Shown one piece after another: positions 18,971 to 40,211 of a stretch of 64,000 bases of DNA (position 1 is its first letter; each line of letters begins with the position of its first letter). Both the position numbers and the translations under genes were made by a program. Source of the stretch: Alphaproteobacteria bacterium. Lineage in GTDB: Bacteria; Pseudomonadota; Alphaproteobacteria; JAGOMX01. Under the pieces are notes generated by a model. That model saw only the letters and a list, made by a program, of their open reading frames with translations, was not told the origin of the DNA and made no database searches. The stretch lies in contig JBGSQK010000020.1 of NCBI GenBank assembly GCA_041738135.1, forward strand, positions 18,082-82,081, given 5' to 3'.

Positions 18971-21766
18971 ATGACAACGGATTATAAAGACTCAGTTTTT
19001 CTGCCTAAAACAGACTTTTCCATGCGGGCCAATCTTTCCCAAAAAGAGCCTGAGATTTTAAAGTCTTGGAATGATCGCAATCAATTTGCGCAGATGACAG
19101 AAATCCGTGAAGGTGCTCAGAAATTTATTCTGCACGATGGCCCCCCTTACGCCAACGGGCCAATTCACATTGGCACAGCCATGAATAAAATTTTGAAGGA
19201 CATTGTCAATCGTTCCTATCACCTGCTGGGACGTCAAATCGTTTACATTCCAGGCTGGGACTGTCATGGGCTTCCTATCGAAGCCAAGATTGAAGAAGAA
19301 TTCCGTAAGCAGAAAAAAACTCGCCATGATATTCCGGTCATTGAATTCCGCAAGGAATGCCGTGCCTATGCGCGTAAATGGATTGATGTGCAACGAGAGC
19401 AATTCAAACGCTTAGGTGTTTGGGCCGATTGGGATCATCCTTATATGACCATCGAGAAGAGCACCGAAGCCCAAATAGTCCGCGAGATGAGCAAATGTTT
19501 GCTCAATGGCTCCCTATACCGCGGCGAAAAGCCAGTTATGTGGTCCGTGGTCGAACAAACCGCATTGGCAGAAGCTGAAATCGAATACCATGACCATAAA
19601 TCTTCCTCAGTTTATGTGCGTTTTCCTATAGTTAAAGCAAGCTCTCCTGTATTTGAAGGTGCGGGAGCCGTTATCTGGACGACGACGCCGTGGACCCTAC
19701 CCGCCAATCGTGCCATCGCCTATGGGGATGAATTGGATTACGTTTTACTAGAAGTGGGAACTGTAGAAGAAAGCCTAGCCAAATCTGGCGACAAACTCAT
19801 TCTCGCCAAAGAACTGCAGGATGCGGTTTGCAAGCAACTGGGCATCACCGATTTCAAAATCGCCCACACATTCAAAGGATCCGAACTAGCCGGAACTATT
19901 TGCAAACACCCATTTGCAGACCAAGGTTATGACTTTGAAGTCCCCATGCTTCCAGGCGATCACGTCACCACCGAAGCAGGTACAGGCTTGGTTCATACAG
20001 CTCCAGCCCATGGTATCGAAGACTTTTATTTAGGTATGAAATATGGTCTAGAAGTGACAAAATTCGTACAAGGCGATGGCCTTTATTCTGATGACCTACC
20101 TTTGTTTGGCGGCCTCCATGTCTATAAAGCAGCAGGCCCCGTTATAGAAAAACTCATTGAAGTGAACGGCCTACTTTACCAAGGCGAAATACTGCACAGC
20201 TATCCCCATTCGTGGCGCTCAAAAGCCCCCTTGATCTATCGCACCACCCCACAATGGTTTCTATCCATGGAAAAAACCGGTTTGCGGGACAAAGCTTTAC
20301 AGGCCATTCGTGAAGTAAACTGGTTCCCAGAAAAAGGGCAACGTCGCATTGAATCTTTCGTGGAAGGAAGGCCAGACTGGTGCCTGTCCCGTCAAAGATC
20401 ATGGGGCGTTCCCATTGCTATCTTCATGCACAAGAAAACCCACGAACCATTAAGGGACGAAACAGTTCAAAACCGAATTGCTGATATTTTTGAGCAAGAA
20501 GGTGCAGACGTTTGGTTTGAAGGCGACAAAGCTCGCTTCTTAGGACCCGACCACAACCCTGACGACTACATACAAATCATGGATATTCTAGACGTGTGGT
20601 TTGACTCCGGTTGCAGCCATGCATTCGTTCTTGAAGCTCGCAAGAGCGAAGGACTCACCTGGCCAGCGGATCTTTACTTAGAAGGCTCAGACCAACATCG
20701 TGGCTGGTTCCAAACCTCATTGCTAGAAGCCTGCGGCACCAGAGGCAAAGCTCCCTATAAAAATGTACTCACCCACGGCTATGTACTGGACGACAAGGGC
20801 CGTAAAATGTCCAAGTCCCTAGGCAACGTGATCGATCCAGTCGCCATCGCTGACGAGATGGGCGTTGAAATGCTCAGACTTTGGGTTGCCAGCTCAGACG
20901 TCTCCGAAGACATCCGCATTGCCAAGGAGCGCATGAGTTATCAGCAAGACACCTACAGGCGCTTGCGCAATACTTTAAGGTACCTGCTAGGCGGTCTCAA
21001 AGACTTCAATGAATCAGAAAAAATCGAAACCTCCGCCATGCCCCAGCTGGAACAATGGGTTTTGCATCGACTATATGAACTAGACCAAACCATGCGCGAA
21101 TGCATCACCAATTTTGACTTCCAGAACTGGTTTACGGAACTGCACAATTTCTGTTCCGTCGATTTGTCGTCATTCTACTTCGATATCCGCAAAGATGTTC
21201 TTTACTGCGATTCACCAGACGACCTGACACGCCGTTCCATGAGAACCGTTTTTGATCAGCTGTTCAACTGCCTGACCACATGGATGGCTCCCGTACTTTG
21301 CTTTACCACAGAAGAAGCGTGGAGATGCCGCTACGGGGATGAAAGTTCTGTTCATTTACAGACCTTCCCCACAATTCCCGAATCCTGGAAAAATGCAAAG
21401 CATGCATCCCTGTTTAACGAAGTACGCAAATACCGCCGCCTGATGACCGGCGCCTTAGAAGGCGCTCGCGCAGATGGCGTCATCGGATCAAGTTTACAAG
21501 CAGTCATTGATATCTATGACCCAACGGGAGCATTACCTCAAAACATAGACTGGTCAGAAGTAGCCATTACCTCAGGCGCAGCAATTCTAAACCAACCAGC
21601 CCCGGAAGGCGCATACGGCATCAGCGATAACGAGAAAATCGGCATCGTGGTTAAACTCGCCCCAGGCGAAAAATGCCAACGCTGCTGGAAAGTTCTGGAA
21701 GAAGTTCATAACAAAGACTTATGTAATCGCTGCGATGAAGTGGTATCGAAACAAACCGCAGCATAA
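18971..21766 (+). CDS. ileS: Isoleucine--tRNA ligase
   Basis: MTTDYKDSVFLPKTDFSMRANL, the HIGH motif (PPYANGPIHIGTAMNK), KMSKS and a C-terminal zinc finger (CQRCWKVLEEVHNKDLCNRCDEV). The start is taken at the Met aligning with the E. coli IleRS N-terminus. Confidence 0.9.
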   Translation: MTTDYKDSVFLPKTDFSMRANLSQKEPEILKSWNDRNQFAQMTEIREGAQKFILHDGPPYANGPIHIGTAMNKILKDIVNRSYHLLGRQIVYIPGWDCHGLPIEAKIEEEFRKQKKTRHDIPVIEFRKECRAYARKWIDVQREQFKRLGVWADWDHPYMTIEKSTEAQIVREMSKCLLNGSLYRGEKPVMWSVVEQTALAEAEIEYHDHKSSSVYVRFPIVKASSPVFEGAGAVIWTTTPWTLPANRAIAYGDELDYVLLEVGTVEESLAKSGDKLILAKELQDAVCKQLGITDFKIAHTFKGSELAGTICKHPFADQGYDFEVPMLPGDHVTTEAGTGLVHTAPAHGIEDFYLGMKYGLEVTKFVQGDGLYSDDLPLFGGLHVYKAAGPVIEKLIEVNGLLYQGEILHSYPHSWRSKAPLIYRTTPQWFLSMEKTGLRDKALQAIREVNWFPEKGQRRIESFVEGRPDWCLSRQRSWGVPIAIFMHKKTHEPLRDETVQNRIADIFEQEGADVWFEGDKARFLGPDHNPDDYIQIMDILDVWFDSGCSHAFVLEARKSEGLTWPADLYLEGSDQHRGWFQTSLLEACGTRGKAPYKNVLTHGYVLDDKGRKMSKSLGNVIDPVAIADEMGVEMLRLWVASSDVSEDIRIAKERMSYQQDTYRRLRNTLRYLLGGLKDFNESEKIETSAMPQLEQWVLHRLYELDQTMRECITNFDFQNWFTELHNFCSVDLSSFYFDIRKDVLYCDSPDDLTRRSMRTVFDQLFNCLTTWMAPVLCFTTEEAWRCRYGDESSVHLQTFPTIPESWKNAKHASLFNEVRKYRRLMTGALEGARADGVIGSSLQAVIDIYDPTGALPQNIDWSEVAITSGAAILNQPAPEGAYGISDNEKIGIVVKLAPGEKCQRCWKVLEEVHNKDLCNRCDEVVSKQTAA

Positions 21767-21817: not shown

Positions 21818-22816
21818 CTATCCCTTAATGACTTTGACATAATCCTTAACTACGAAGAATTCTGCAGGCATCCCGTGCACATCATCGCGCAAATTGCTTC
21901 CGATTTCAGGATAGCCTTCTCCTGTTTCAAAGCTCTGAAACTTCAATGGCCCAACCAACTTCCTAGCCCTTTCTGAGATTCTATCTTCCGTAAAATTGCT
22001 GTCATAAACCAAACTGCAAGGGTTATAGGTATATTCAATTCCATCACGTTTTTCCACAGGGGAGCAGCTGATGCCCCTCAAAAAAGAAAAGTGGTTTTTT
22101 TGGGGACCGATGTCAACTTTGTATGGCCTTGAATTTAGAATAAAACGACTTTCATCTGTACCAGCGTCGATTAGCTCCTGGGTCTCTTTACGGGTGACCT
22201 CAGAGAGGGCAAAAACACTACAGCTGGCTAAATTAACACCCGGAAGGTAAATAGCGCCCTCTGGCTTAAGGAGTCTAACAATACGAATCATCCTAATTGT
22301 ATCCCATTCAGCAAATTTAAGCACAGACCAATCAAAATAGATCTTGCTTACAGGGCCATTAAATTTAACTTTGCCTGTATCTTGAGGAAGGAGCAGCGCT
22401 ATCAAATGATTCCAATCATCCATCTTGTTAAAGTCAGCATAAAAAATAGGGGAACGTTCATTGGCTGATCTAAAATCGACCCTTTCATCATTGGTGAAAA
22501 ATATTCGGACGGGTGCTTTAAAGGGGTACTGACCTACGCCATTCTCACGCGCTTCCCTTTCCCTGTCTTGATCGATCAATCTTTTCATATGGTTTTCATA
22601 AGGACCGGCACCAAGGACGATATGTAACTCTCGCCCTTCTTGTAGGGCAAACTGAGGTGCCCGCTCCAAGTAAACCTTGAGGTTTCTGTCCGCATTAAAC
22701 TGCTTGCTCAGCTCTACACTCCGAGCACTTTCTTGCTCATTATAAAAAGCTGTAGCGGAGGCAGCACTATTAAAGCCTAGGGCTAATAAGGAAATCGCAA
22801 AAATTTTCTTCAACAT
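21818..22816 (-). CDS. Hypothetical secreted protein with weak Rossmann/methyltransferase-like motifs
   Basis: The 332-aa ORF has a signal peptide (MLKKIFAISLLALGFNSAASA). Possible motif I-like (HIVLGAGPYE) and motif III-like (LLKPEGAIY) segments are seen. There is no confident family assignment. Confidence 0.45.
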   Translation of the reverse strand: MLKKIFAISLLALGFNSAASATAFYNEQESARSVELSKQFNADRNLKVYLERAPQFALQEGRELHIVLGAGPYENHMKRLIDQDREREARENGVGQYPFKAPVRIFFTNDERVDFRSANERSPIFYADFNKMDDWNHLIALLLPQDTGKVKFNGPVSKIYFDWSVLKFAEWDTIRMIRIVRLLKPEGAIYLPGVNLASCSVFALSEVTRKETQELIDAGTDESRFILNSRPYKVDIGPQKNHFSFLRGISCSPVEKRDGIEYTYNPCSLVYDSNFTEDRISERARKLVGPLKFQSFETGEGYPEIGSNLRDDVHGMPAEFFVVKDYVKVIKG

Positions 22817-23043
22817 ATTTTACTCCAATAAATATTCATCAGCCTATCTAAAATATGGGGCCAATTCGTAATGGCCTATATATATGATATATATGACTAG
22901 ATTTTAATCTGTCAAGTAATCTCGATTATTTTGATACATGGGGACTGCTACGTTAGTAAATGGTTCAGGGGCTTCCGGGACACTAAAAATCTGCAAACGC
23001 ACATAGCTTTCAAGTTTTTCATACCAGAAGGCGCATACGGCTC

Positions 23044-23185
23044 CATCGATAACGAGTATAGGCATCGTAGTAAAGCTCGCCCCAGGCGAAAAATGCCAAC
23101 GCTGCAGGAAAGTCTTAGAAGAAGTGCATAACAAGGACCTGTGCAATCGTTGCGACGACGTGATGGCAAACGAACCGCTGCCTAA
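23044..23185 (+). pseudogene. Displaced, frameshifted remnant of the ileS 3' end
   Basis: The fragment is about 85% identical at DNA level to ileS 21602..21766 (GAAGGCGCATACGGC...GCCCCAGGCGAAAAATGCCAACGCTGC...CATAACAA...), but an indel breaks the frame. It lies 1.28 kb downstream of the intact ileS stop. Confidence 0.8.
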
Positions 23186-27868: not shown

Positions 27869-28891
27869 ATGACACAACCCATACACATGACAGACGTTGC
27901 CATAATTGGTGCCGGCCCCGTTGGCCTTTTTTCCATCTTTGAGTGCGGTATGCTGCGCCTGAAATGTCATGTTATTGACGCCCTTGATATGATCGGCGGC
28001 CAATGTGCAGCCTTGTATCCGGAAAAACCCATTTACGACATCCCAGCCCATCCGAGCATTTTGGCTCTGGATTTGGTAGAGAAACTCGGTGAACAAGCAA
28101 AACCCTTTGAACCCGTTTACCATTTCGGTCAGCGCGTTGAGGAAATTTCCAAACAAGATTCCGGTCGCTTCGTTATTAAAACATCGGCAGGCATTGAAAT
28201 CAATACGGGCGCAATTATCATAGCTGCAGGCGTAGGTGCCTTTGGACCGAACCGCCCGCCCCTTGAGGGCATAGAAGCGTATGAAGGATCATCCATATTT
28301 TATTTTGTTAAAAGCCGTGAAGAATTTCGGGGCAAAAGAATCGTCATCGGCGGCGGTGGAGATTCAGCGGTTGACTGGGCCCTGTCCTTAAGCGAAGTGG
28401 CAGAGCATGTAACCCTTGTACACAGGCGGGCCAAGTTCAGAGCAGCCCCCGAAAGCCTAGCAAGGCTCGAGTTCTTGGCAGCGGAAGGAAAAATAGACCT
28501 AGCAGTCCCCTACCAACTTTCAGGCCTCGAGGGTGAAAATGGTCAATTAACATCCGTAATTATAGAGGACTTAGATGGCCACAAGAAAACCGTCAAAGCC
28601 GATTGTTTGCTGCCGTTTTATGGTCTAGCCATGAACTTAGGACCCATTGCCAATTGGGGTTTAAGCTTGGATCGCAACCACATCACCGTCGACCAATCAA
28701 CCAGCCAAACGTCAGAAACCGGCATCTACGCCATCGGCGATATAGCCCATTACCCCAACAAGCTAAAGCTGATCCTAACAGGCTTTGCCGAAGCAGCCCA
28801 AGCAGCCCACTCCATCAGAGCTCTCCTACACCCTGATGAAGTGGTTCATTTCGAATACTCCACCACTAAAGGCGTACCGGGTCAGGGTTGA
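27869..28891 (+). CDS. Ferredoxin--NADP+ reductase, thioredoxin-reductase-like type (two Rossmann motifs)
   Basis: The FAD-binding motif is VAIIGAGPVGLF, the NAD(P) motif is IVIGGGGDSAVDWAL and GIYAIGDIA is present. There is no CxxC redox centre, consistent with TrxR-like FNR. Confidence 0.7.
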   Translation: MTQPIHMTDVAIIGAGPVGLFSIFECGMLRLKCHVIDALDMIGGQCAALYPEKPIYDIPAHPSILALDLVEKLGEQAKPFEPVYHFGQRVEEISKQDSGRFVIKTSAGIEINTGAIIIAAGVGAFGPNRPPLEGIEAYEGSSIFYFVKSREEFRGKRIVIGGGGDSAVDWALSLSEVAEHVTLVHRRAKFRAAPESLARLEFLAAEGKIDLAVPYQLSGLEGENGQLTSVIIEDLDGHKKTVKADCLLPFYGLAMNLGPIANWGLSLDRNHITVDQSTSQTSETGIYAIGDIAHYPNKLKLILTGFAEAAQAAHSIRALLHPDEVVHFEYSTTKGVPGQG

Positions 28892-28905
28892 GTGAGCTAA
28901 TAAAG

Positions 28906-29070
28906 CCCCGTCATCCAGAGCGCGCCTCGGCAAAGCCGAGGAAGCGTGGGATCCAGAATATGAGCGTCGCGCAGCGACTCATTATAGCTATACGGAGCCG
29001 CTATCGCGGCACTCATTATCTGGATCCCACGCTTCCTCGGCTTTGCCGAGGCGCGCTCTGGATGACGGGG
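28906..29070. repeat. MITE-like palindromic element, family A (subtype 2), copy 2
   Basis: CCCCGTCATCCAGAGCGCGCCTCGGCAAAGCCGAGGAAGCGTGGGATCCAG...CTGGATCCCACGCTTCCTCGGCTTTGCCGAGGCGCGCTCTGGATGACGGGG, nearly identical to the copy at 40036. Confidence 0.85.
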
Positions 29071-29098
29071 TTATCAACTTCCAGAAACAACTAACTCC

Positions 29099-31507
29099 TC
29101 ACCCATGCGCCCGCATATTAGGCAGCTTAGGCTGCGGAATCTGTTGCAGATTCATCGGAATGATACAGGTAACTTTCGTTCCTGCTTTTTGCTTAGATGA
29201 CATCATAACTCTGCCGCCGTGCATTTCGATGAGGCTTTTCACCAAGGACAAGCCAAGACCGATACCATCATAGCGATCGATAGCTTCATCCGTTCTTTCG
29301 AATTTACGGAATATGCGTTTTTGATCTTTGCGCGATATGCCTGCACCTGTATCAGAAACCGTCAGATGTAAGTTCTGACCAATCCTGGCAGCTGAAAGGG
29401 CAATCTTGCCACCCGCTTGCGTAAACTTTATGGAGTTTTGAATCAGATTGATAAGTGCTTGCTTGAGCCTTCTTTCATCGGCAACAAAATCTCCAATATC
29501 CGGTGCGCATGTGACAGTTAGCGTAAGCTTTCTGTCTTGAATACGCTTTTCGGCGATGCTGGCCACGCTATTCAGCACAGACTTAGTATCCACTGGCTGC
29601 AAGTTCAAATTCATTTGTCCTGCTTCGATGGTAGCAAGGTCAATAATGTCGTTGACCAGTATCAACAATTGATTGGAGGAATCCAATATCCCCTTACAAT
29701 AGGTACTTTGCTGAGGATTTAAATTACCAAAATACTGGTCTGAAAGGATCTCGCCGAAGCCAATGATCGTATTGATAGGAGCTTTTAGATCGAACGAAAA
29801 GCTGTGTAAAAACTCAGACTTGATTCTATCTGCCACTTCCAGTGCTTGGTTTCGTTCTCGCAATGCGCGCTCGGCACGGTAGCTATCTGAAACATCTGTG
29901 TAACTGATTAAATGAGCCCCGTCCGGCAAAGGCACATAAGTGAAATCTAAAATGGTGTCATCCTTACGGGTCAAACGACCATTTTTGGGAATGCGATCTG
30001 TGATATTTTCAATAATCTTTTGTTTGTAGGTCTCCCAACTATCACCTGAGTCAAAAAATCCCCGGATTTGTTCTATGATATCCGATATATGCCTTCCCGG
30101 CTCAAGAAATTCCGATGAAAGCTTCCACAGCCGAGCAAAAGCAGGATTGACGAGTTTTAGACGATTATCGCTAGCAAACACCGCTACGCCTTCGAACAAA
30201 TGATCCAGCGTTTCCTTCTGGACTGCTAGCTGCGTATTGGCTTGGCGTTGAATAATTAGGCTGTCGGTTACATCTTCAAACACGAATAGCAACCCGCCAC
30301 CCGGATGAGGGGCAACCACAGTACGGATGGTCCGTTCATCAGGCAAATGGAGCAACTCTTGTATAGGATTCAGCAAAGATTTGAACATCTGATGCGTACG
30401 TTGCTTAAAAGCTGGAAAGTCCGCATGTTCAGTTAACAACCTGCGCTTATGTAAATTATCCAATATGTCCGTCATAAGAGGATGTGTATGCAACCAGGTT
30501 TCATCCATATCAAACATGCGAGCATAAGCATGATTGAAAAAGGCTAGTCTTTTTTCCGTGTCATAGATGACAACAGCAGATGCAATGTTTTCCAGAATTT
30601 CCTTATGACCTGACATATGTCGATGAACTTCTTTTTGCAACTTTTCAATCTGGGTATGGTCAACCGCATAACCAACGTAACCTTTAACCTCGGAAACAGG
30701 CAGTTCGTGATATTCCAACAGATGTCGAGCGCCATCTATGACTGTATGTTCGCTCAAGCTCTTACGTCCTGCCTGATCAGTCACTAATGTTCCAGACCAT
30801 AAGTTCTGATCACGCTTAAGAGCTAGCTGAGGTGAGGTTTCTAAGATTTCTGCATAATTCTGATTACAATAGGTGAGTTGACCGTCATCTCCCCGAAGCC
30901 ATACGGGCATGGGGAGGGAGTTTAATACCGTATTCAGAACCTTATTTGAAAGAGCTCGGGTTGACATTTCCGTAGGGGATAAAGTTTCTCTGAACCACAA
31001 CACATAGGAAGTATGGGGCGGATCGCTTACTTCTCTTGCCAAAAATATGCAGCTACTTTTATCCTTTTTCATGGTGAGTTTGATATCAAAAGACGCCCCC
31101 TTGTCTTTAAGGTGAACCATTTTTTCCCGCATGAGTTCTACGTCAGAAGCCAGAAAACAACCAGAAAATTCTTTAAAATGAATTTCATAACGCTCATGCA
31201 AGCCAAGATAATCAGCCAGTCTTGGATCCAGAATCATAAAATCCTGATCAGGAGTCCAAATAAGCCACTTTGCAGGGCAAAAATCCAGTAGGGTTTTATA
31301 AAAGTTATGTTGCGTGCTGCGACTTAAAAGTACTTTCTCATTTTCTAGCAACTGATTATTCTTCCGAATAATCATCATGACAAGGTATGAAATTATGGAG
31401 AGCGATAAAAGAGTCAGAAAAAAGAACAAAAAGCTCCAGTCGAACAAATTATCAAAGATGTTCGTTTTAAGCATAGAAAAGAATGTTTTTATCAGCCCGT
31501 TTTCCAC
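29099..31507 (-). CDS. Membrane-anchored multi-PAS sensor histidine kinase (no receiver domain)
   Basis: It has an N-terminal TM helix, several PAS-like segments, a HisKA H-box (HSFSFDLKAPINTIIGFGE) and HATPase_c N/G1/G2 boxes (NLIQNSIKFT, DTGAGIS, GIGLGLS). Confidence 0.8.
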   Translation of the reverse strand: MENGLIKTFFSMLKTNIFDNLFDWSFLFFFLTLLSLSIISYLVMMIIRKNNQLLENEKVLLSRSTQHNFYKTLLDFCPAKWLIWTPDQDFMILDPRLADYLGLHERYEIHFKEFSGCFLASDVELMREKMVHLKDKGASFDIKLTMKKDKSSCIFLAREVSDPPHTSYVLWFRETLSPTEMSTRALSNKVLNTVLNSLPMPVWLRGDDGQLTYCNQNYAEILETSPQLALKRDQNLWSGTLVTDQAGRKSLSEHTVIDGARHLLEYHELPVSEVKGYVGYAVDHTQIEKLQKEVHRHMSGHKEILENIASAVVIYDTEKRLAFFNHAYARMFDMDETWLHTHPLMTDILDNLHKRRLLTEHADFPAFKQRTHQMFKSLLNPIQELLHLPDERTIRTVVAPHPGGGLLFVFEDVTDSLIIQRQANTQLAVQKETLDHLFEGVAVFASDNRLKLVNPAFARLWKLSSEFLEPGRHISDIIEQIRGFFDSGDSWETYKQKIIENITDRIPKNGRLTRKDDTILDFTYVPLPDGAHLISYTDVSDSYRAERALRERNQALEVADRIKSEFLHSFSFDLKAPINTIIGFGEILSDQYFGNLNPQQSTYCKGILDSSNQLLILVNDIIDLATIEAGQMNLNLQPVDTKSVLNSVASIAEKRIQDRKLTLTVTCAPDIGDFVADERRLKQALINLIQNSIKFTQAGGKIALSAARIGQNLHLTVSDTGAGISRKDQKRIFRKFERTDEAIDRYDGIGLGLSLVKSLIEMHGGRVMMSSKQKAGTKVTCIIPMNLQQIPQPKLPNMRAHG

Positions 31508-31610
31508 AGTTTCTTTTTCTTGGCCTTCGCACAGTTTAAAACAGAAAGCACCCTTGCGAAGGAATAAAGTGCCCTTAAGTTATATCAGACTTTTTCTATA
31601 ACGGAAATTT

Positions 31611-32600
31611 TCAATTTTCAAGTATAATTGTTTTACCCTCTTCATAGGTAATTTCGATAGCATCTTGTTCGATGATCCTACTCATATATTTGAGTAATTT
31701 AGCCGCCTTGTCGGATTTTCTTGTTTTACCTATTTTAAGTTCGAAATTTGAAGGATATTCATAATCCGCAAAACCATCAGGTAAAGAAATGTCTGAAATT
31801 AGGATTGTTAAATGAGGATACTTAGTAGCAAATCTTGCAGCAAGACCAACTAGTAGCACATTGTTACAATCTGGCCCCGGAGTTAGATCAATTTTACAAT
31901 CTGATACGTTCCGCGATACCATGACACCTAAAAGATCGACAACTTGCTGTGCATTTAGATTGTGCCCTTTACAAAGTAGAATGTTGAGATTTTTAAAACT
32001 GTCGACATTTAAATTTAAGTAATTGATTAAACCAGGCAACACAATTGGGTTGCATCCAGAAAAATTCATACCCTTCACATCAAATTCCTTATTAATATAG
32101 GTAAGGGCCGTCTCACATGTTTCTTCTGAGTCAACAAGTTGTAAAATGTCTCCTGGCTTTAACATAGAGTTTTTTCCCAAGTAATCCAGGAACTTGTTCG
32201 TTTTCACGGCTTCATGGCTATCCGTATCCAGACTGATGTTTAAAGGCGCTCGCAAAAATTGTTTTGGCGGAGTCACTCCTGTATCTTGCGTACTTTCATC
32301 CCTGTCAGGTGCGGCACCAATATATACTTGATCAGGTGTCTGCGCAGGATCAGATAAGTCTGGCCACCAAGTTAGTTGAAATCCAGCCACCTCATCTGCA
32401 ACACTGCTAAACGCAGATGAAATTCTTTCTTGAAAATAGCTGAAGAAAGGCAGCGTAGCGCAATCTGGATTAAGTTCGCGAAGATCAATAACCGGCCCCA
32501 TATTTCTCGGCGGCGCCATGTAATGGTTGAATTCTTGGTCTGACGCCCATAAGGGCGAGCTGTTTAACATGAGCATGATTGTATATACGAGTCTTTTCAT
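31611..32600 (-). CDS. Hypothetical secreted protein (329 aa), Leu/Asn-rich
   Basis: It has a signal peptide (MKRLVYTIMLMLNSSPLWA). A segment looks leucine-rich-repeat-like (LNLNVDSFKNLNILLCKGHNLNAQ). Confidence 0.45.
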   Translation of the reverse strand: MKRLVYTIMLMLNSSPLWASDQEFNHYMAPPRNMGPVIDLRELNPDCATLPFFSYFQERISSAFSSVADEVAGFQLTWWPDLSDPAQTPDQVYIGAAPDRDESTQDTGVTPPKQFLRAPLNISLDTDSHEAVKTNKFLDYLGKNSMLKPGDILQLVDSEETCETALTYINKEFDVKGMNFSGCNPIVLPGLINYLNLNVDSFKNLNILLCKGHNLNAQQVVDLLGVMVSRNVSDCKIDLTPGPDCNNVLLVGLAARFATKYPHLTILISDISLPDGFADYEYPSNFELKIGKTRKSDKAAKLLKYMSRIIEQDAIEITYEEGKTIILEN

Positions 32601-32661
32601 CTTATATCTCCATATTTTGTATGTGTAGCTAACAAACTGAAATACTAAGACTTACAAAAGA

Positions 32662-33876
32662 TCAATCCACGCTTAAGCAAGCGGCAAGCTGTTCTACCGC
32701 CCAATCAATTTCTTCTTTTGTTATCACTAATGGTGGCGCCAATCTGATGGTTGTTTCGTGGGTTTCCTTCGTCAGAACTCCTTTTTCAAGCATTTTTTCC
32801 GCAACTTGGCGGCCGGTAACAATGCGTGAATCCAGTTCTATTCCTATCCACAAGCCTTTACCTCGAACTTCTTTAATTGCATGACTTCGGATTTTGTTTA
32901 TGCTCTCAATCATATAAGAACCTAACTCATGGCTCTTATCCACTAGATTTTCAGTTTCTATCACCTTTAAAGCCTGCAGCCCGATCGCTGCCGCAAGGGG
33001 ATTGCCACCAAAAGTTGAACCGTGAGTTCCTGGCTCAAATAGCTGCATTATGTCTTTGCGAGCAAGAAAAGCAGAAACAGCCATAATACCCCCACCCAGC
33101 GCTTTACCCAGTATGAGCCCATCAGGCTTGGCATCCTCATGCTGAAAAGCAAACATTTTCCCCGTCCGACCCAGTCCGCTTTGCACTTCATCCAAGATAA
33201 ATAAGACATTATTCTGTTGGCATACAGACTTAACCTGGCGTAGATACCCCTCAGGCGGAACTATAATACCAGCTTCACCTTGAATAGGCTCTATAATCAC
33301 AGCGCAAGTATTGGGCGTGATGGCATTGGCTATAGCATCTACGTTTCCAAATGGAACGCTGACAAAACCAGGAGCAAAAGGACCGAAATTATGTTTACTC
33401 TCCACATCGCTAGAAAAACCAACCACAGTGGTGCTGCGTCCATGAAAATTATTATCAGCTACGATGATTTCTGCTTTATAACGGTCAATGCCTTTGACCA
33501 AATAGCCCCATTGCCTTGATGCTTTGATAGCTGTTTCCACAGCCTCCACGCCTGTGTTCATAGGAGCAGCCATGTCCATGCCAGACACTTCGCATAATTT
33601 GAGCAGAAATGGCGCCAACCTATCATTATAGTAAGCCCTTGAAGGCACGCACAGACGTTGAGCTTGCTCAAACATGGCTTGCAACATCTTTGGATGCCCA
33701 TGCCCCAAGCTTACCGCAGAATAGGCGGACATCATGTCCAAATACCTTTTACCCAGAATGTCCCAAACCCAAGATCCTCTGCCATGTGATAATACAACTG
33801 GTAAAGGATGGTAGTAGCGAGCTGTAACTTTTAGTTCTTCCTCGATCAAATAGTTTCTTTCCACTGACATAACCAT
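32662..33876 (-). CDS. rocD: Ornithine aminotransferase (class-III PLP aminotransferase)
   Basis: YHPLPVVLSHGRGSWVWDILGKRYLDMMSAYSAVSLGHGHP, the PLP lysine region (DEVQSGLGRTGKMFAF) and GKALGGG are present. It lies adjacent to an arginase gene. Confidence 0.75.
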   Translation of the reverse strand: MVMSVERNYLIEEELKVTARYYHPLPVVLSHGRGSWVWDILGKRYLDMMSAYSAVSLGHGHPKMLQAMFEQAQRLCVPSRAYYNDRLAPFLLKLCEVSGMDMAAPMNTGVEAVETAIKASRQWGYLVKGIDRYKAEIIVADNNFHGRSTTVVGFSSDVESKHNFGPFAPGFVSVPFGNVDAIANAITPNTCAVIIEPIQGEAGIIVPPEGYLRQVKSVCQQNNVLFILDEVQSGLGRTGKMFAFQHEDAKPDGLILGKALGGGIMAVSAFLARKDIMQLFEPGTHGSTFGGNPLAAAIGLQALKVIETENLVDKSHELGSYMIESINKIRSHAIKEVRGKGLWIGIELDSRIVTGRQVAEKMLEKGVLTKETHETTIRLAPPLVITKEEIDWAVEQLAACLSVD

Positions 33877-34785
33877 TTACCCCTCCCTACTGAGTAATTC
33901 TCGTAAGATTTTGTGTATAAGATGAGCGGTTTTCATTTGTTGATCCAAATGAGGATTATACTCCGTTATCTCCAAAGCTTTGAATTTAGGGTTATCTCGC
34001 AACAAATGCAGACTTGGAAGCACATCCTCAGTCAAGAGACCGCCTTCTGCGGGACTGCCAACACCTGGCGCCACCGACGGGTCAAAGCCATCTAAATCCA
34101 GACTTAAGCCAAACCCTTTGGTGCCCGTGCTAACAATATGGATTGCTTCCTTAAGAACCGCTTCAAATCCCTTTTTCCTAACGTCTTGCGCATAAAAAAC
34201 TTTTACGCCTAGCTCTGTTAACAGATTTTTCTCACCTTCTTCAAAACTGCGAACACCTATTAGCACTACATGCTCTGGCTTTACTTTTGCATTGGGGTTT
34301 CCCAGCTGCGTCAATTCAGGAAGCCCATGCCCCAACAAACTTGCCACAGGCATGCCGTGATAAGCAAAGGAAGGGCTGGTGGTGGGGGTATGGGCATCCA
34401 TATGAGCATCAAACCAGATAAGCCCGAATTCACCAACCGCATCCATAGACGTGGTAACAGCGCTCCAAGTGCCAACCGCAATGGAATGATCGCCACCGAT
34501 GACACATGGGAAATTGCCTTGATGAACTGTTTTTGTAACCGCACTTAAAATATTCTGACACATGTCGCTCACATAAGGGATACAGTGAGCCGGATGAATA
34601 TCATTGTCATTGGCAAAACGCAGGAATGGGTAGAGAATTTCTTGCCAATCCACAGAAAAATTCTCTTGCTGCAACTTCTCAACAAGGCCAAAATGCTTCA
34701 TGGCATCGGGCCCATGTTCAGTGGTCCGCTTTTGAGCCCCCCATCCTGTGGCGGCGCCTATGAGAGAAGTGTGTTTTATTGACAT
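33877..34785 (-). CDS. rocF: Arginase (ureohydrolase family)
   Basis: The Mn-binding motifs are GGDHSIAVG, DAHMDAHTP and SLDLDGFDP. The start is taken at MSIKHTSLIG (ATG at 34785). The 50-codon N-terminal extension in the ORF track would overlap phrB and is judged artefactual. Confidence 0.75.
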   Translation of the reverse strand: MSIKHTSLIGAATGWGAQKRTTEHGPDAMKHFGLVEKLQQENFSVDWQEILYPFLRFANDNDIHPAHCIPYVSDMCQNILSAVTKTVHQGNFPCVIGGDHSIAVGTWSAVTTSMDAVGEFGLIWFDAHMDAHTPTTSPSFAYHGMPVASLLGHGLPELTQLGNPNAKVKPEHVVLIGVRSFEEGEKNLLTELGVKVFYAQDVRKKGFEAVLKEAIHIVSTGTKGFGLSLDLDGFDPSVAPGVGSPAEGGLLTEDVLPSLHLLRDNPKFKALEITEYNPHLDQQMKTAHLIHKILRELLSREG

Positions 34786-34840
34786 ACTATTAATTTTAAC
34801 TAAAAAAAGGCCACTTGGCAAATGATTGGGAAACAATTCA

Positions 34841-36265
34841 ATGATTAAAGCGACAATCGTTTGGTTTAACAAGGATCTTAGATTAAAAGATAACTTGGCA
34901 TTGATAGAGGCCATAGCGTCCGGCAACCAAATCATCCCTCTATTTATTTTAGATCACAGATTAAAGGCTATGGGAGGAGCTCAGAAATGGTGGCTTCATC
35001 ACAGCTTAGTTGAGTTAAGCGAGAGTCTTATCCAACGAGGATCCAGCCTAATTCTTCGAAATGGAACACCTGAAGCTATCATATCTGACATTGCACGAAC
35101 TATCCAAATTGATCAAATACATTGGAATCAATGTTACACACCGGACGTCATCTCTCGTGACCAGAAGTTTATTCAATTTTGCGATCAGCTTGGCATCCAA
35201 ACGAATGTTCACAAAGGCAATCTATTGTTTGATCCTTCTGATATTAGTACATTAAAAGGTGAGCATTATTCTGTTTACACACCCTTTTGGAATGCTATAC
35301 AAAAATTGCAAGTCGAACCAAATAAACCTTCACCCGCCACGTTACCGCCCTGTCCAGAAATGGTATCCGATAATTTGAGTGACTGGAAACTATTACCCCA
35401 AGCAAATGGTTGGTCTGAAAATTTTAAAGATTGGTGGCGCGCTGGAGAAACCGCAGCGCAGGAAAGGCTAGATTTGTTTTTAGATGAATCTATAGATACC
35501 TATCATAAAGGGAGAGATCTTCCAGGAATAGACGGAACCTCTTGTCTTTCTCCTTATCTGCATTTTGGTGAAATCAGTGTGCGAGATGTGTGGCACAAAG
35601 TCTCACTAAAACGAGAACTAACCGGTTTGTCCGATGGCTGCACAACCTTTCTGAAGGAACTGGTTTGGCGAGAATTTTGCGCCTACCTGCTGTTTCATAA
35701 TCCTAGAATATTAAATCAAAATTTCCGCAAAGAATTTGATAGCTTCCCTTGGGTCCAAGATTCGAATCATTTGCAAGCTTGGCAGAAAGGCAAAACCGGC
35801 TATCCCATTATTGATGCGGGCATGCGACAACTTTGGGCCACCGGCTGGATGCACAATCGAGTACGCATGATCGTGGCTTCCTTCTTGACCAAAAACTTAC
35901 TGATCCATTGGAGACAAGGGGAAGAATGGTTTTGGGATACACTATTGGATGCAGATCAAGCCAGCAATTCTGCCAATTGGCAATGGGTGGCCGGTAGTGG
36001 CGCAGACGCTGCGCCTTATTTTAGGATCTTTAACCCAATTCTTCAAAGCGAGAAATTTGATGCAAAAGGAGACTATATCCGACGGTGGGTGCCAGAACTG
36101 AGTCATCTTTCAGACAAACATATCCACGCGCCTTTTTCTCAAGATCCGATGGTTCTGAAGCAAGGGGGGGTGACTTTGGGTCAAACGTACCCTTTCCCCA
36201 TAGTGGATTTAAGTGTAACCCGAGCAAGGGCCCTTGCGGCATACAAAACGTTAAAGGACGTATAA
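34841..36265 (+). CDS. phrB: Deoxyribodipyrimidine photolyase (CPD photolyase/cryptochrome family)
   Basis: IVWFNKDLRLKDNLAL at the N-terminus and the FAD-binding region (WREF..., GWMHNRVRMIVASFL, NWQWVAGSGADAAPYFRIFNP) are present. Confidence 0.85.
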   Translation: MIKATIVWFNKDLRLKDNLALIEAIASGNQIIPLFILDHRLKAMGGAQKWWLHHSLVELSESLIQRGSSLILRNGTPEAIISDIARTIQIDQIHWNQCYTPDVISRDQKFIQFCDQLGIQTNVHKGNLLFDPSDISTLKGEHYSVYTPFWNAIQKLQVEPNKPSPATLPPCPEMVSDNLSDWKLLPQANGWSENFKDWWRAGETAAQERLDLFLDESIDTYHKGRDLPGIDGTSCLSPYLHFGEISVRDVWHKVSLKRELTGLSDGCTTFLKELVWREFCAYLLFHNPRILNQNFRKEFDSFPWVQDSNHLQAWQKGKTGYPIIDAGMRQLWATGWMHNRVRMIVASFLTKNLLIHWRQGEEWFWDTLLDADQASNSANWQWVAGSGADAAPYFRIFNPILQSEKFDAKGDYIRRWVPELSHLSDKHIHAPFSQDPMVLKQGGVTLGQTYPFPIVDLSVTRARALAAYKTLKDV

Positions 36266-36285
36266 ACGTAAGAAGCCCCGTCATC

Positions 36286-36443
36286 CAGAGCGCGCCTCCG
36301 CATAGCGGAGGAAGCGAAGGATCCAGCGTATGTGCGCGAGCGAATGCGAGCTCCGTATTAAAGTATGATCGAGTTCGCATACGCTCACACTTTTATGCTG
36401 GATCCCACGCAGCAACGCTACGCTTATGCTGCTCTGGATGACG
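36286..36443. repeat. MITE-like palindromic element, family A (subtype 1), copy 3
   Basis: CCCCGTCATCCAGAGCGCGCCTCCGCATAGCGGAGGAAGCGAAGGATCCAGC...GCTGGATCCCACGCAGCAACGCTACGCTTATGCTGCTCTGGATGACG, closest to the copy at 1228. Confidence 0.85.
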
Positions 36444-36465
36444 AGGCTTTACTGGGGTGATTACT

Positions 36466-37233
36466 TTAAACCAAAAATTGTTCTTGGATGATCCGTTCCT
36501 TAAGATCCTGTTCCTTATCGAACAACAGAAACAGCGATATGGAAGGATCTTCTTGAACCTCAACCCACTCCACATCACGAACTTCGGTAAAGTCTGCAAC
36601 TGCGCTGACGGGTCTTTTATCGGGGCAAAGGATTTCAAACTTAACTTTCGCGTTATAAGGCAGCAAGGCCCCTCTCCAACGTCGTGGCCTGAAGGAACTG
36701 ATAGGAGTCAGGGCTAACAAATTAGTACCTATGGGAATAATAGGACCATGGGCCGATAAGTTATAGGCCGTACTTCCAGCTGCCGTAGACACAAGAACGC
36801 CATCACAAACCAGCTCTTCCATTCGCATAACATCATCCACATAAATTTTAATTTTCGCTGCTTGTCGCGTCTCACGCAGCAAAGAAACTTCATTGATAGC
36901 GCTTGCCTGCACTTCTTTTCCATTGATTTGTTTTGCACGCATTATTAAGGGATGCAACTCAATCTTTTCACTATCCTTCAACCGCTCCATCAAACATTCG
37001 ACGCTAAAGGAATTCATCAAGAAACCAACGGTTCCACAATTCATGCCAAACACTGGAATCTGCTTATGGATATTACGGTGTAAAGTTTCCAACATAAATC
37101 CATCACCACCGAGCGCCACAATCAGATCAGCCTCTAATTCATCCACATGCACATAGGATTTCATTAACTCTTTTAAAGCTTTTTGTGCGACCTCAGAATG
37201 ATCAGCCACAAATGCTATTTTATCTAAGTTCAT
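36466..37233 (-). CDS. nadK: NAD+ kinase
   Basis: It has the GGDG motif ([18 protein letters not shown]), the NE/D motif (NEVSL) and a conserved C-terminal Gly-rich region ([16 protein letters not shown]). Confidence 0.85.
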
Positions 37234-37234
37234 T

Positions 37235-38104
37235 CTATTTTTCCCTTAGCAAGCATGATTTTAGAGTGAAGGCGATACCTTCCATCATTTCGTAGTAGGG
37301 ACCATCTAGGGACACTGGATCATCTACACCCATGGGATCCAACACATCCACATGCAAATTGAGTTGCTCCGCAAGACTTTTCACGATTTTCTCACCATGG
37401 TCTGGCTCGCCAAATATACAACGTACGCTTCTTTCCTTGGCAACTTTTTCTATTAGCACCCTCTGGGAAGCGCGCACTGAATGCTCCGCGTCTTTAACTA
37501 CAGGTACACTCCTTTGCAAGCCGAATGCCTTCTCAAAATATTGAAATGCATCATGATACACAAAGTAAGGCTTGTCCTTACAAGAAGCCAAGTCTTGAAC
37601 CAACTTATTATCCAATTGATCTAATTTAATTTGAATCTGAGAGGCGTTGCTCTCGTAGACACCCGCATGAGAGGGGTCCATACCGCTAAGCATAGTGGCT
37701 ACATGTTTAACGATAACTTTAGCATTTTTCGGATCCAACCATATATGCGGGTCGATTTTACCGGTCTCTAACTCAAGCTTCTGGAGATCACTCAAATCTA
37801 GTAAAGTCAGCACCCGACCATTGGTAGCGAGCTTAGTGACCGGCTCTTGCAAGACCGTCTCCATTGCTGGTCCAACCCATATAAATAAATCAGCACCGCT
37901 GATAGCTTCAGCTTTTGAAGGTGTAAGCGAAAAATGATGACCTGATTCATGACCCGAAAGCAACAACGTGGGTTGCCCTACACCTTTCATAACGCCTGAT
38001 ACAAGAGCATGAATAGGATTGATACTTACTACAACCTTAGGTACGGCAGAATTGGCCGTACAAGACATAAAAACAAGTAGGGTGAAAAAAATTCGACTGG
38101 TCAT
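37235..38104 (-). CDS. znuA: Metal (Zn/Mn) ABC transporter substrate-binding protein, ZnuA/TroA family
   Basis: It has a signal peptide. Conserved metal-ligand histidines are present ([16 protein letters not shown]) together with [13 protein letters not shown]. Confidence 0.75.
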
Positions 38105-38181
38105 GAGATTTTATATCCTCGCCGCTAACGCATTTTTAAACTTCTCCATATATTCTATATAGGAAACCAAAGCTGGAGGCA

Positions 38182-38691
38182 ATGATGACTGAAGACTGCT
38201 TAACAAATAAAACGAAAATATCACAGATAAACCTTGGAATTAAAAAAGAAGAGGTTTCGCATGTGGTTCAAATGCTTTCAACTATTTTATCGAGCACCTA
38301 TGTACTATACATGAAAACCCAAGGATTCCATTGGAATGTGGTGGGACCAAACTTTTATAGTCTGCATAAGCTCAGTGAAGAACATTACGAGGAAATGGCC
38401 GAAGCCATTGACACCATCGCCGAACGCATTAGAGCCCTAGGTCATATTGCGCCTGCAAATTACAGTTGGTATGAAAAACTGTCCATCATTAAGACAACTA
38501 CGGAACTCAAAGACACCAAGTCCCAATTAATTGATCTCTTATCAGATCACGAAGCATTAGCTAGTCTTCTGAAAGAAGGTTTTGATCTGGCGGAACAAGC
38601 CAAAGATCATGCTACAGGTGATTTATTTGTAGAACGCATGCGCTCACATGAAAAAACCGCCTGGATGCTAAGATCAGTTCTTGGCGACTAA
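38182..38691 (+). CDS. dps: Dps (DNA protection during starvation) ferritin-like protein
   Basis: YVLYMKTQGFHWNVVGPNFYSLHKLSEEHYEEMAEAIDTIAERI carries the ferroxidase-site H/D/E pattern of Dps. Confidence 0.8.
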   Translation: MMTEDCLTNKTKISQINLGIKKEEVSHVVQMLSTILSSTYVLYMKTQGFHWNVVGPNFYSLHKLSEEHYEEMAEAIDTIAERIRALGHIAPANYSWYEKLSIIKTTTELKDTKSQLIDLLSDHEALASLLKEGFDLAEQAKDHATGDLFVERMRSHEKTAWMLRSVLGD

Positions 38692-38796
38692 GGTTTCTTA
38701 ATATTAATAAGACAACAATACAGTTCACGCGCCACCGTCATTGCGGGTAACTCAACCCCCCAAAAGGGGTAAATTTAAATCAATGACAAACCTACT

Positions 38797-38916
38797 CCCG
38801 TCATTGCGAGCCCCTCTTGGGGCGCGGCAATCTACTGTGACGTAACCGTTTAACATCAGTCTGCGGTAGAGAAGAAAGTAGATTGCCACGCCCCAAGAGG
38901 GGCTCGCAATGACGGG
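38797..38916. repeat. MITE-like palindromic element, family B, copy 4
   Basis: CCCGTCATTGCGAGCCCCTCTTGGGGCGCGGCAATCTACTG...AGTAGATTGCCACGCCCCAAGAGGGGCTCGCAATGACGGG. Confidence 0.85.
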
Positions 38917-40004: not shown

Positions 40005-40035
40005 TGTGATTTCTTTAATAACAAAATGCCCACAT

Positions 40036-40200: not shown

Positions 40201-40211
40201 TTGTATTTCCC

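Follow-up and report, generated by a model that had tools for sequence, protein, structure and literature searches.

The palindromic elements of this alphaproteobacterial DNA are very probably head-to-head dimers of CGTC-tagged REPs, REPIN-like and non-autonomous. The assignment is a match by description to the CGTC-tagged REP superfamily, which is mainly alphaproteobacterial (Di Nocera, De Gregorio and Rocco, BMC Genomics 2013, PMC3733652). The window, the whole stretch of 64,000 nucleotides that was analysed, contains nine of these elements: four of family A, four of family B and one singleton D. All nine lie within 10 nt of the places given by a sequence-only reading, which had interpreted them as MITE-like families with a common terminal inverted repeat. 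A elements have about 165-170 nt, B elements about 120 nt and D 136 nt. A start with (C)CCGTCAT and an end with ATGACGG(G), claimed for all of them, is shared by nearly all; A1 deviates with degenerate ends (TTCGTCAT...ATGACGTG), A3 at the right end (ATGACGAGG) and B3 at the left end (CCCGCCAT). CCGTCAT occurs 22 times in the window, with 5.7 expected, and none of 100 shuffles reached this count. CGTCAT is followed by ATGACG at a distance of 60-190 nt in 12 pairs, against an expectation of 0.28 and a maximum of 3 in 300 shuffles.

Each element consists of two arms with the tags directed outward and a spacer between them. The arms follow the module CGTC-AT-NN(N)-(A)GAG-[variable GC hairpin]-(C)GTG-(N)NN-AT-CCAG/CTAC. 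Of the 18 arms in A, B and D, 16 match this module, and no other sequence of the window does; the chance expectation from shuffled windows is 0.06 matches. The parts are, in this order, an unpaired CGTC tag, a basal stem of 4-5 bp that opens with AT, a conserved internal loop of (A)GAG and (C)GTG, a GC-rich apical hairpin and a tail. In the window, the tail is CCA(G) in A and D and CTAC in B. Seventeen of the 18 arms start with CGTC. The exception is the left arm of B3 with CGCC, and the related element E has TGTC. The frame CGTC-AT...AT-tail is also kept in 17 of 18 arms; the left arm of B2 has A-A-C before the tail, not A-T-C. The arms are compound and bulged, 34-50 nt long, with an apical stem of 3-7 bp and a loop of 3-5 nt. 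In the alignment of the A arms, the AT/AT pairs and the basal stem ATCC/GGAT are invariant. The apical stem shows compensatory changes from C-G to G-C and from C-G to A-U. Pairing is present in 94% of the apical-stem cells, in comparison to 21-54% with slid partners.

The apical hairpin differs between the families and also between the two arms of one element, as in the heterodimers A1, A3, A4 and D. Where their arms differ, these elements fold into two separate local hairpins, so that the REP unit and not the arm-to-arm pairing is conserved. The distance between the arms across the inverted pairs is 12-115 nt, and the tags are located outside in 9/9 elements and in E. Predicted folding energies range from -70 to -155 kcal/mol (z -8 to -19). 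To the 'terminal inverted repeat' CCCGTCAT...ATGACGGG that the elements share, each outward arm contributes its tag and the first two stem bases. CCGTCAT is not the stand-alone transposase end for which it had been taken. A single recognition or processing feature, common to the elements, is a plausible reason for the shared end. The interiors had been described as unrelated; this applies to the apical hairpins and the central spacers, the sole differing parts among A, B and D, and not to the ordered arm module, which is common well beyond 8 nt. In family B, the copy-to-copy similarity runs about 8-15 nt beyond CCCGTCAT. The motif is therefore subterminal in this family.

A2 (28906-29070) consists of two identical CGTC REP arms of the A type in head-to-head orientation, at 28909-28956 and 29020-29067. 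The spacer of 63 nt contains two small stem-loops. Viewed as an inverted repeat, A2 has arms of 66 nt with 94% complementarity, and the fold has an MFE of -149.6 kcal/mol (z -18.9). The neighbours are convergent: the stop of a TrxB-like gene is 14 nt and the stop of a histidine kinase gene 28 nt away. A4 (40035-40199) belongs to the same subtype with 85% identity, but is a heterodimer with GCTCCGC..GCGGAGT in the left and CCTCGGC..GCCGAGG in the right arm. It lies between a LysR-type gene and a 211-aa ORF, again convergent. A1 (1226-1395) and A3 (36276-36446) are heterodimers of a second subtype with 89% identity to each other. The apical hairpins of A1 are CCTCCGC..GCGGAGG on the left and GCAGCA..TGCTGC on the right. 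A1 has the IbpA gene and a 246-aa ORF as convergent neighbours; those of A3 are the photolyase and NAD kinase genes, with stops 10 and 19 nt away. Across the subtypes, identity is 62-64%, with different cores and different right-arm hairpins. The division of family A into two subtypes, which had been seen in the sequence alone, was confirmed. A2 and A3 each contain an end of the Logan short-read contig L132.

B1 (9656-9775) opens a cluster of three elements with a porin-like gene upstream and the liv operon downstream. It is a head-to-head dimer of B arms (CGTC-ATTGC-GAG-CCCC-TCTT-GGGG-CGTG-GCAAT-CTAC) with a unique spacer. B2 (9878-9995) is a B-type dimer, and its spacer has a relative in B3 only (69%). 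B3 (10366-10486), with its CGCC left tag, is the most diverged copy of this dimer type. The B-type dimer B4 (38796-38917) has co-directional Dps/ferritin and LysR-type genes on either side. A degenerate solitary B-like arm is present at 38733-38775, just upstream of B4. The singleton D (12728-12863) has arms of the form CGTC-ATGG-AGAG-[hairpin]-CGTG-CCAT-CCAG and a spacer that is a perfect 17-bp hairpin. One porin-like gene paralog lies on each side of D. Two unannotated genes at 10583-12361 and 12881-14296, flanked by B3, D and C2, were considered as mobilising enzymes and rejected: they encode 39%-identical secreted paralogs with beta-barrel-type C-termini and are porin-like. E (56464-56623) is a related dimer with the TGTC variant tag that was absent from the earlier list of CCCGTCAT families. 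Its arms have a CCCGGC-CTTGA-GCCGGG stem-loop and an ATCCAG tail, and both are mutationally decayed in the window. The Logan contig L043 ends inside E.

The build of the elements is mosaic. B arms are 94% identical, B spacers 37%, which is the opposite of MITE copy-and-decay. The spacer module of two small stem-loops is found with one arm type in A2/A4 and with another in E (78% column identity of the spacers). One arm type is combined with different spacers in B1 and B4 versus B2/B3.

Each of the four A copies is located between the stop codons of convergent genes, with 10-30 nt to either stop. B1-B4 and D are placed between co-directional genes, and E is alone in its position between divergent genes. 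The statement that most elements sit between convergent gene ends is overstated, since it holds for the A copies only. The observation that no reading frame is interrupted was correct: no element disrupts a real gene, and overlapping ORFs (e.g., 9619-9990 and 36085-36441) are spurious. Canonical U-tracts are missing from the hairpins, and the window has no excess of terminator-like sites (18 vs 13.6 +/- 3.6). The alphaproteobacterial affiliation of the host is supported by atpF/atpF' and ELM1-like genes and by the best matches of LepA and photolyase. The density of elements had been taken as typical of a reduced genome of a host-associated bacterium, which is not supported. The gene content of the window represents ordinary alphaproteobacterial metabolism, and CGTC REPs were reported across alphaproteobacterial orders (PMC3733652). 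Many of the species listed there, in Sphingomonas, Bradyrhizobium and Caulobacter, are free-living.

Relatives provide insight into the turnover. A photolyase search of genome contigs had a best match with 51% identity and yielded no syntenic relatives. In syntenic relatives, the A2 site is empty in L133 (50-nt gap) and L136 (7-nt gap), the A3 site in L133 (24-nt gap) and L137 (2-nt gap) and the A4 site in L133 (3-nt gap). In L142, which is about 90% identical, the A4 site contains only CCGTCA-CAGCA-ATGACGG within B-type flanks; in the window, A4 has a left flank (CAAAATGCCCACATC) similar to that of B2. The contrast of A4 in the window with a tag-to-tag remnant in L142, both downstream of the LysR-type gene, is a hint of body exchange within a shell. 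The B4 site is empty as well: a block of about 313 nt including B4 is missing from L142, with a gap of 91 nt versus 407 nt, and the gap at the B4 site in L137 has 104 nt. At a different site, L142 carries a B dimer whose arms match the window arms exactly over 33 nt, in comparison to 88-93% identity of orthologous DNA. The inner ends of this copy are CCAC and TTAC, not CTAC, and the CGTC end is invariant. E has an ortholog with more canonical arms in L138 and is absent in L139. A base-exact empty-site junction was not obtained: L133, L136, L137 and L139 are too diverged, and L142 differs by larger, complex indels. The sequence comparison supports an interpretation of the elements as probable lineage-specific, recent gains, with turnover between genomes of about 90% identity; the relatives with 62-65% photolyase identity fit loss as well. 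About 25-30 distinct environmental contigs contain the A-type frame CGTCATCCAGAGC...GCGTGGGATCCAG, in which the apical hairpin takes many different forms, and the frame also occurs as single arms in many metagenomic contigs.

Target-site duplications at the copy borders had been suggested as a check. None of the 10 elements has adjacent direct repeats; instead, the flanks prolong the palindrome by 1-6 nt. The 64-kb window encodes no transposase family gene, including the IS110 family, and it contains no autonomous IS with the terminal inverted repeats of the elements. Eight RAYT/TIRYT sequences, rebuilt from Additional file 5 of PMC3733652, had no tblastn match in the window and 131 loci (1.45 Mb in all). 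A distant blastn search of the plasmid database with A2 and B4 gave no match. Rfam detected only tRNAs in the window at the gathering threshold, and at E<=1 only sub-threshold matches to eukaryotic miRNA precursors, that is, generic long hairpins. Canonical CGTC REPs (stem of 8-9 bp) were also searched for in the relatives and in 42 other loci of alphaproteobacteria, with chance-like matches only. The terminal 12-mers had only chance matches in unrelated papers in the literature. The TrxB-like, IbpA and Dps proteins had no exact counterpart on record, probably owing to start codons that were called differently.

The dimers may spread as hairpin-forming single-stranded DNA that is handled in trans by an enzyme encoded elsewhere. 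A candidate would be an HUH/Y1 enzyme (RAYT-like) or one not yet described, and breaking and joining may take place at or beside the CGTC tag. Inserted dimers would be co-transcribed with the upstream gene. The very stable predicted hairpins in the 3' UTR could act as a barrier to 3' exonucleases or to read-through from one convergent gene into the other; this would account for the tolerance of dimers at those sites. It is conceivable, though rather unlikely, that the CGTC tags are the break-and-join points of a trans-acting recombinase on hairpin or single-stranded DNA and that whole bodies (arms and spacer) are excised or exchanged within a fixed outer 'shell'. If this is true, a complete genome could expose the mobilising enzyme of CGTC REPs, a question that has stood since 2013.

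The earlier interpretation corresponds to classical MITEs: deletion derivatives of at least one DDE-type IS, with CCCGTCAT terminal inverted repeats as the binding site of one transposase, whose gene is located elsewhere or has been lost. Such elements would be short, non-coding, multi-copy and palindromic with common outer ends, as observed, and their absence at orthologous sites in relatives is in agreement. This origin is nevertheless highly improbable. The 10 elements examined lack target-site duplications, the shared motif runs on into a conserved stem-loop module and is not a simple inverted repeat, and some dimers have non-identical arms. The B interiors are unrelated in spite of nearly identical arms, single arms with the frame occur in metagenomes, and a transposase was found neither in the window nor in the 1.45 Mb of loci. 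What stands of the earlier view are non-coding, multi-copy elements, probably gained in a specific lineage, with family B at a different site in L142; the model of MITEs with inverted repeats and one transposase is not supported, with self-folding REP units and no duplications. A mobilisation as GTAG-type REPINs by a RAYT, at least for family B and akin to Coxiella QMITE2 or GTAG-3 REPs, is improbable as well. The inner end CTAC, present in seven of the eight window B arms, is GTAG on the other strand, so that B can be read as a GTAG-type REP (GTAG-ATTGC...GCAAT-GACGG). The doublet-hairpin architecture equals that of REPINs, and alphaproteobacteria, among them Bradyrhizobium, are reported to have matches to the GTAG REP of QMITE2 (Wachter et al. 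2018, PMC5896051). Yet the variable inner ends of the L142 copy beside its invariant CGTC end show that the inner GTAG is not the conserved tag. A and D have CCAG at this position, the tags would sit inside the dimer in the rarer TT arrangement, the RAYT/TIRYT queries had no match in the window and 131 loci, and the direct repeats of QMITE2 are absent.

Selected functional hairpins, either bidirectional transcription barriers or stabilisers of mRNA 3' ends, could have been copied by recombination or gene conversion without a dedicated transposition. This is compatible with a REP nature of the elements; as an explanation in its own right, it has hardly any probability. The filling of convergent-stop gaps by all four A copies, the extreme folding energies, the compensatory changes in the apical stem and the conservation of arms far above the spacers and above orthologous DNA between species fit a function, and an A-type body in B-type flanks at the A4 site would fit gene conversion. 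However, U-tracts and an enrichment of terminator-like sites are missing, the same convergent gene pairs of relatives have gaps of 2-50 nt and no such hairpin, and E is located between divergent genes. The arrival at new, unrelated sites requires some insertion mechanism.

With CGTC-tagged REP dimers as the best explanation, an apparent new MITE system is re-filed under a described, widespread repeat class, and the elements should be annotated as CGTC-type REP dimers, not as transposons. Three modest aspects are added to this class. The arms have a bulged design, in which the GAG/CGTG internal loop is conserved and the apical hairpin is free to vary, and this frame is also present in many environmental contigs. 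Genomes that are about 10% diverged provide direct evidence for gain, loss and replacement. Finally, the arms remain identical between species in spite of the divergence of the spacers and the surrounding DNA. CGTC REPs are without a known mobilising enzyme, for which a lineage with recent turnover would be a sensible starting point. The turnover concerns three related families, so that a complete genome of this lineage could expose the enzyme.

BIMEs of E. coli and RIMEs of rhizobia are mosaic intergenic elements of REP units and defined spacer motifs. The elements of the window resemble them in the mosaic build, with recombined spacer modules and arm types, and differ from BIMEs in the REP units, which are GTAG-type in BIMEs. 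REPINs are reportedly REP doublets that form hairpins and are mobilised by RAYTs (Bertels & Rainey 2011). They consist of GTAG-type REPs, and the genome carries a RAYT gene flanked by the same REPs. The similarity to REPINs comprises two inverted REP units with a short spacer that form one long hairpin, the doublet as the replicating unit, the intergenic location and the lack of target-site duplications. In contrast to REPINs, the conserved tag is CGTC, and a RAYT was not found in the window and 131 loci. A GTAG foot is present in the window B arms only; A and D have CTGG, and the B copy of L142 does not conserve GTAG. QMITE1 and QMITE2 of Coxiella burnetii (Wachter et al. 2018, PMC5896051) are palindromic repeats of 150-400 bp with a high degree of structure, located in 3' UTRs and between genes. 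QMITE2 has 150-190 bp, direct repeats of 7-11 nt and a GTAG REP core and is a target of IS1111 (PMC5896051). Structured palindromes built on a REP, and alphaproteobacterial relatives of QMITE2, are the common ground. Compared by description, the window elements differ in the absence of 7-11 nt direct repeats, of a conserved GTAG and of a visible role as IS1111 target in the window. QMITE1-encoded peptides with ...GNDG... back-translate to GGnAAYGAYGG, so that QMITE1 can encode the same ATGACGG end. An identity with Coxiella QMITE1/QMITE2, suggested by GC content and palindromes, was rejected: the window is alphaproteobacterial and lacks the QMITE2 direct repeats.

The closest agreement is with the CGTC REPs, whose families CGTC-1 to CGTC-4 include RPE-4 and RPE-6 of Rickettsia and dRS3 of Neisseria (PMC3733652). 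Published members have an unpaired terminal CGTC (TGTC and CCTC variants allowed), almost invariably complementary A and T at stem positions 1-2 and a short unpaired 3-nt tail with the consensus CCA. Head-to-head dimers predominate, heterodimers are common, and spacers have 20-100 bp, some with two stem-loops. They are intergenic between convergent or unidirectional ORFs, with less than 20 bp to both stops in the convergent case, and the superfamily is explicitly without an associated transposase (PMC3733652). The window elements share the unpaired CGTC or TGTC tag, the AT stem start, the outward tags, heterodimers, the spacer range including spacers with two stem-loops and the alphaproteobacterial host. 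They are likewise located near stop codons of convergent or co-directional genes, E excepted, and the window has no linked transposase. The CCA tail is shared by the window A and D arms, and the window B arms have CTA. The REP-encoded peptides VIPAKAGI, VIAGLDPAI and WIPWSNHGMT (Additional file 3, PMC3733652) back-translate to CGTC-AT...AT-CCA units. Unlike the published contiguous stem of 8-9 bp with a loop of 4-5 nt (Table 1, PMC3733652), the window arms combine a basal stem of 4-5 bp, an internal loop and an apical hairpin. With this compound, bulged geometry and their length, they deviate from CGTC-1 to CGTC-4 and are, set against the published description, at best an uncatalogued bulged variant of CGTC REPs. 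Bulged members may have escaped the survey according to its authors (PMC3733652).

Repeat finding and motif enrichment bore out the repeat families A, B and D of the sequence-only reading. The 165 nt of A2 (28906-29070) form a near-perfect palindrome, with 94% complementarity between its 66-nt arms. Further family A copies lie at 1226-1395 (A1), 36276-36446 (A3) and 40035-40199 (A4). Family B has copies at 9656-9775, 9878-9995, 10366-10486 and 38796-38917 (B1-B4), and D is a single 136-nt palindrome (12728-12863). The window holds 22 CCGTCAT motifs (5.7 expected), and CGTCAT is followed by ATGACG within 60-190 nt 12 times, versus 0.28 in shuffles. The proposed split of family A into two subtypes was also correct: identity is 89% for A1/A3 and 85% for A2/A4, versus 62-64% between subtypes. 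The CCGTCAT-type outer ends are general, but not universal; A1 deviates at both ends, A3 at the right and B3 at the left end. A separate repeat family without CGTC tag, probably family C of the same reading, occurs at 4139-4194, 14423-14625 and 17117-17172. Its units read CCTCTCCCC-TTGT-GGGAGAGG followed by GGAGCGAAGCG(G/T)AGGGGTGAGGGG. At 14444-14570 the repeat forms an inverted pair that lies inside another inverted repeat (TGGGGCAAAGCCCCA, 14423-14446 / 14602-14625), which overlaps the stop codon of an acyl-CoA dehydrogenase gene.

The 8 nt common to the ends of A, B and D are the outer edge of a longer module, the arm. From the outer end, its order is CG[TC]CAT - 1-5 nt - GAG - 6-45 nt - G[TC]G - 1-6 nt - ATC[CT]A[GC]. 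This fits 16/18 arms of A, B and D and matches nothing else in the window (0.06 matches in shuffled windows). The pattern was built from these same arms, and the count describes one pattern covering three families and nothing else rather than an independent significance test. Every arm folds by itself. CGTC stays unpaired, and the basal stem opens with AT (ATCC/GGAT in A, ATTGC/GCAAT in B, ATGG/CCAT in D). An unpaired internal loop, (A)GAG / (C)GTG, is followed by a GC-rich, family-specific apical hairpin; the tail is CCAG in A and D and CTAC in B. Across the eight aligned A arms, the basal stem is invariant, and compensatory changes (C-G to G-C, C-G to A-U) occur in the apical stem. Paired cells amount to 94%, versus 21-54% with partners slid. 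In A1, A3, A4 and D, the apical hairpin differs between the two arms of the same element, and these elements fold as two local hairpins flanking a long stem. What is structurally conserved is thus the individual arm, rather than the duplex between arms.

The central spacers are modular. Family B has an arm identity of 94% and a spacer identity of 37%, with the exception of the B2/B3 spacers (69%). The A2 and A4 spacers form two small stem-loops and recur, at 78% column identity, as the spacer of E (56464-56623). The arms of E are unlike those of A2 and A4, with a TGTC tag, a CCCGGC-CTTGA-GCCGGG stem-loop similar to CGTC-3 REPs and an ATCCAG tail. An orthologue occupies the same site in L138, a contig of the closest relative (about 2940-3135), with more canonical arms and a cleaner palindrome. 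Window E has point mutations in both arms and has thus decayed. The relative L139 is without E.

The window is ordinary chromosomal DNA from an uncultured alphaproteobacterium and encodes IleS, PheST, LepA, RecJ, FadE, malic enzyme, a liv transporter, an XerD-like and an ELM1-like protein; atpB-E-F'-F lie on the adjoining contig. The closest named relatives by LepA (~80% identity) are alphaproteobacterial MAGs, Telmatospirillum and 'Ca. Bealeia'. Each of the four A copies fills the gap between two convergent genes, with 10-30 nt to either stop codon. The genes on both sides of B1-B3, B4 and D are co-directional, and those beside E are divergent. Short-read Logan contigs of the same organism break off inside A2, A3 and E, which fits an assembly broken by repeats or palindromes.

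The REP dimers B3, D and C2 separate two paralogous genes on the minus strand (10583-12361 and 12881-14296) for secreted proteins of 592 and 471 aa, 39% identical and without Pfam or NCBIfam match. Their C-termini (...SGLTVRF, ...SGLMVKL) indicate that they are probably lineage-specific outer-membrane beta-barrel porins. A region of ~140 nt at the end of ileS, ending 24 nt before the stop, is duplicated 1.4 kb downstream (21602-21742, 23024-23162, 85-88% identity). The copies bracket a 332-aa ORF on the minus strand (21818-22816) without Pfam match, and the arrangement looks like a small insertion with target duplication. The 980-aa product of 49600-52542 (minus strand) has weak matches of tandem-95-repeat and M36-peptidase-like type and is probably a surface protein rich in repeats. 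Within its gene lie a 285-nt tandem duplication (50852-51421, 81% identity) and repeats at 27, 57 or 84 nt spacing (50069-50377).

RNA folding energies of all elements range from -70 to -155 kcal/mol on either strand (z -8 to -19). The minus-strand fold is stabler by 1-10 kcal/mol in 10/10 elements (A1-A4, B1-B4, D, E). This bias agrees with the GC skew, which is steadily negative on the plus strand; the G-rich strand has more G-U wobble options. It does not match transcription direction; B4 lies between plus-strand genes. No element has a canonical U-tract at its 3' side, and the number of terminator-like sites in 28000-41500 is not raised (18 vs 13.6 +/- 3.6). The 3' intergenic sites and the extreme hairpin stability suggest co-transcription and a putative effect at the RNA level, as an exonuclease barrier or a read-through block.

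Distant syntenic relatives (L133, L136 and L137; photolyase identity 62-65%) have short gaps at the element sites. LepA identity is about 97% for the organism of L133 and a contig from the sample of L137. The gap between the TrxB-like and kinase genes (A2) is 207 nt in the window and 50 and 7 nt in relatives, that between photolyase and NAD kinase (A3) 200 nt versus 24 and 2 nt, that between LysR and the next gene (A4) 207 versus 3 nt, and that between ferritin and LysR (B4) 407 versus 104 nt. Over 129 kb of relatives' loci, the arm pattern matched in the closest relative only, represented by two contigs of JGI sample 3300050211 (DNA 88-93% identical to the window). One of these, L142, lacks a ~313-nt block (window 38693-39007) with a solitary degenerate B-like arm (38733-38775), B4 and more. 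GTTTCTT brackets the block at 38693 and 39001. Since L142 has GTTTAGA at that place, the bracket is no clean target-site duplication. The block also holds a degenerate unit, ATACCCGC-GAAA-TGTGGGAAT (38969-38989), resembling the back-translation of the CGTC-1 peptide VIPAKAGI. L142 has a B dimer at a site that is empty in the window. Its arms equal window B arms over 33 nt, within DNA about 10% diverged. This dimer has the tails CCAC and TTAC; hence the inner 'GTAG' of family B is not conserved. An AT-rich inverted repeat upstream of a 211-aa ORF (40962-41067; 36-nt arms, 86% complementary, 34-nt loop) has no relation to the CGTC elements; it keeps its position in L142 (aligned block = window 40208-41534). 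Over short evolutionary times, elements have been gained, lost and replaced; none of the junctions resolved to the base.

At the A4 site (window 40005-40211), L142 (1896-1988) has only CCGTCA-CAGCA-ATGACGG inside B-type outer flanks, with 19 nt identical to the right end of B1. The left flank of A4 in the window (CAAAATGCCCACATC) resembles that of B2 (CAAAATGCCCAACCTC). This comparison of a single site suggests the tags as the places where bodies are replaced or cut out, and hints at breakage and rejoining there. Palindrome-centre deletion with gene conversion would account for the site equally well. The sequence-only reading had proposed MITEs mobilised by one transposase recognising terminal inverted repeats. 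Non-autonomous elements with a common recognition feature remain, but the transposase model fails on target-site duplications, arm structure and conservation pattern. No element has a target-site duplication; the flanks instead prolong the palindrome by 1-6 nt. No transposase families were found within the 64-kb window. The arms are held constant while the spacers drift. The elements are not classical MITEs; they are REP-dimer repeats that turn over. They may spread in trans by an enzyme recognising the arm fold and acting at the CGTC tag or close to it. The closest model would be the processing of GTAG REPs on single-stranded DNA by HUH/Y1 RAYTs. Neither RAYT nor TIRYT was detectable in the window or 131 loci, none is linked to CGTC REPs as published (PMC3733652), and a search of the papers available returned no later one naming an enzyme for these repeats.

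One scan of JGI metagenomes with the A-type frame (CGTCATCCAGAGC-N15-45-GGATCCAG) yielded 88 stretches with 63 distinct sequences. About 25-30 of the latter clearly share the frame, ...GAGC[hairpin]GCGTGGGATCCAG, with many different self-complementary apical hairpins; 16 sequences had a folding z < -2.5. The remaining matches look like chance in GC-rich coding DNA. On these matches, the A-type frame is widespread and its apical hairpin free to vary.

In this uncultured alphaproteobacterium, the elements represent a variant within a known superfamily of repeats. CGTC REPs are palindromes in which CGTC, sometimes TGTC, stays unpaired at one end; the stem nearly always opens with complementary A and T at its first two positions, and the unpaired tails fit CCA (Di Nocera et al. 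2013, PMC3733652). They mostly form head-to-head dimers with tags outside, with spacers of 20-100 bp and two possible stem-loops; heterodimers are frequent and hosts are mainly alphaproteobacteria. They lie between convergent and unidirectional ORFs, convergent repeats <20 bp from both stops, and are associated with no transposase gene (PMC3733652). The window elements share the tag, AT stem start, tail, head-to-head dimers, spacers, heterodimers, host and sites, and no transposase gene accompanies them within the window. The frame is confirmed by the REP-encoded peptides VIPAKAGI, VIAGLDPAI and WIPWSNHGMT (Additional file 3, PMC3733652), which back-translate to CGTC-AT...AT-CCA units. In the published families, stems are contiguous (8-9 bp) and loops 4-5 nt long, but the window arms are compound and bulged; bulged members may have been missed by the search, as its authors state (PMC3733652). 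For both reasons, the elements are placed within the CGTC REP superfamily as an uncatalogued variant, outside CGTC-1 to CGTC-4 by the published stem and loop description.
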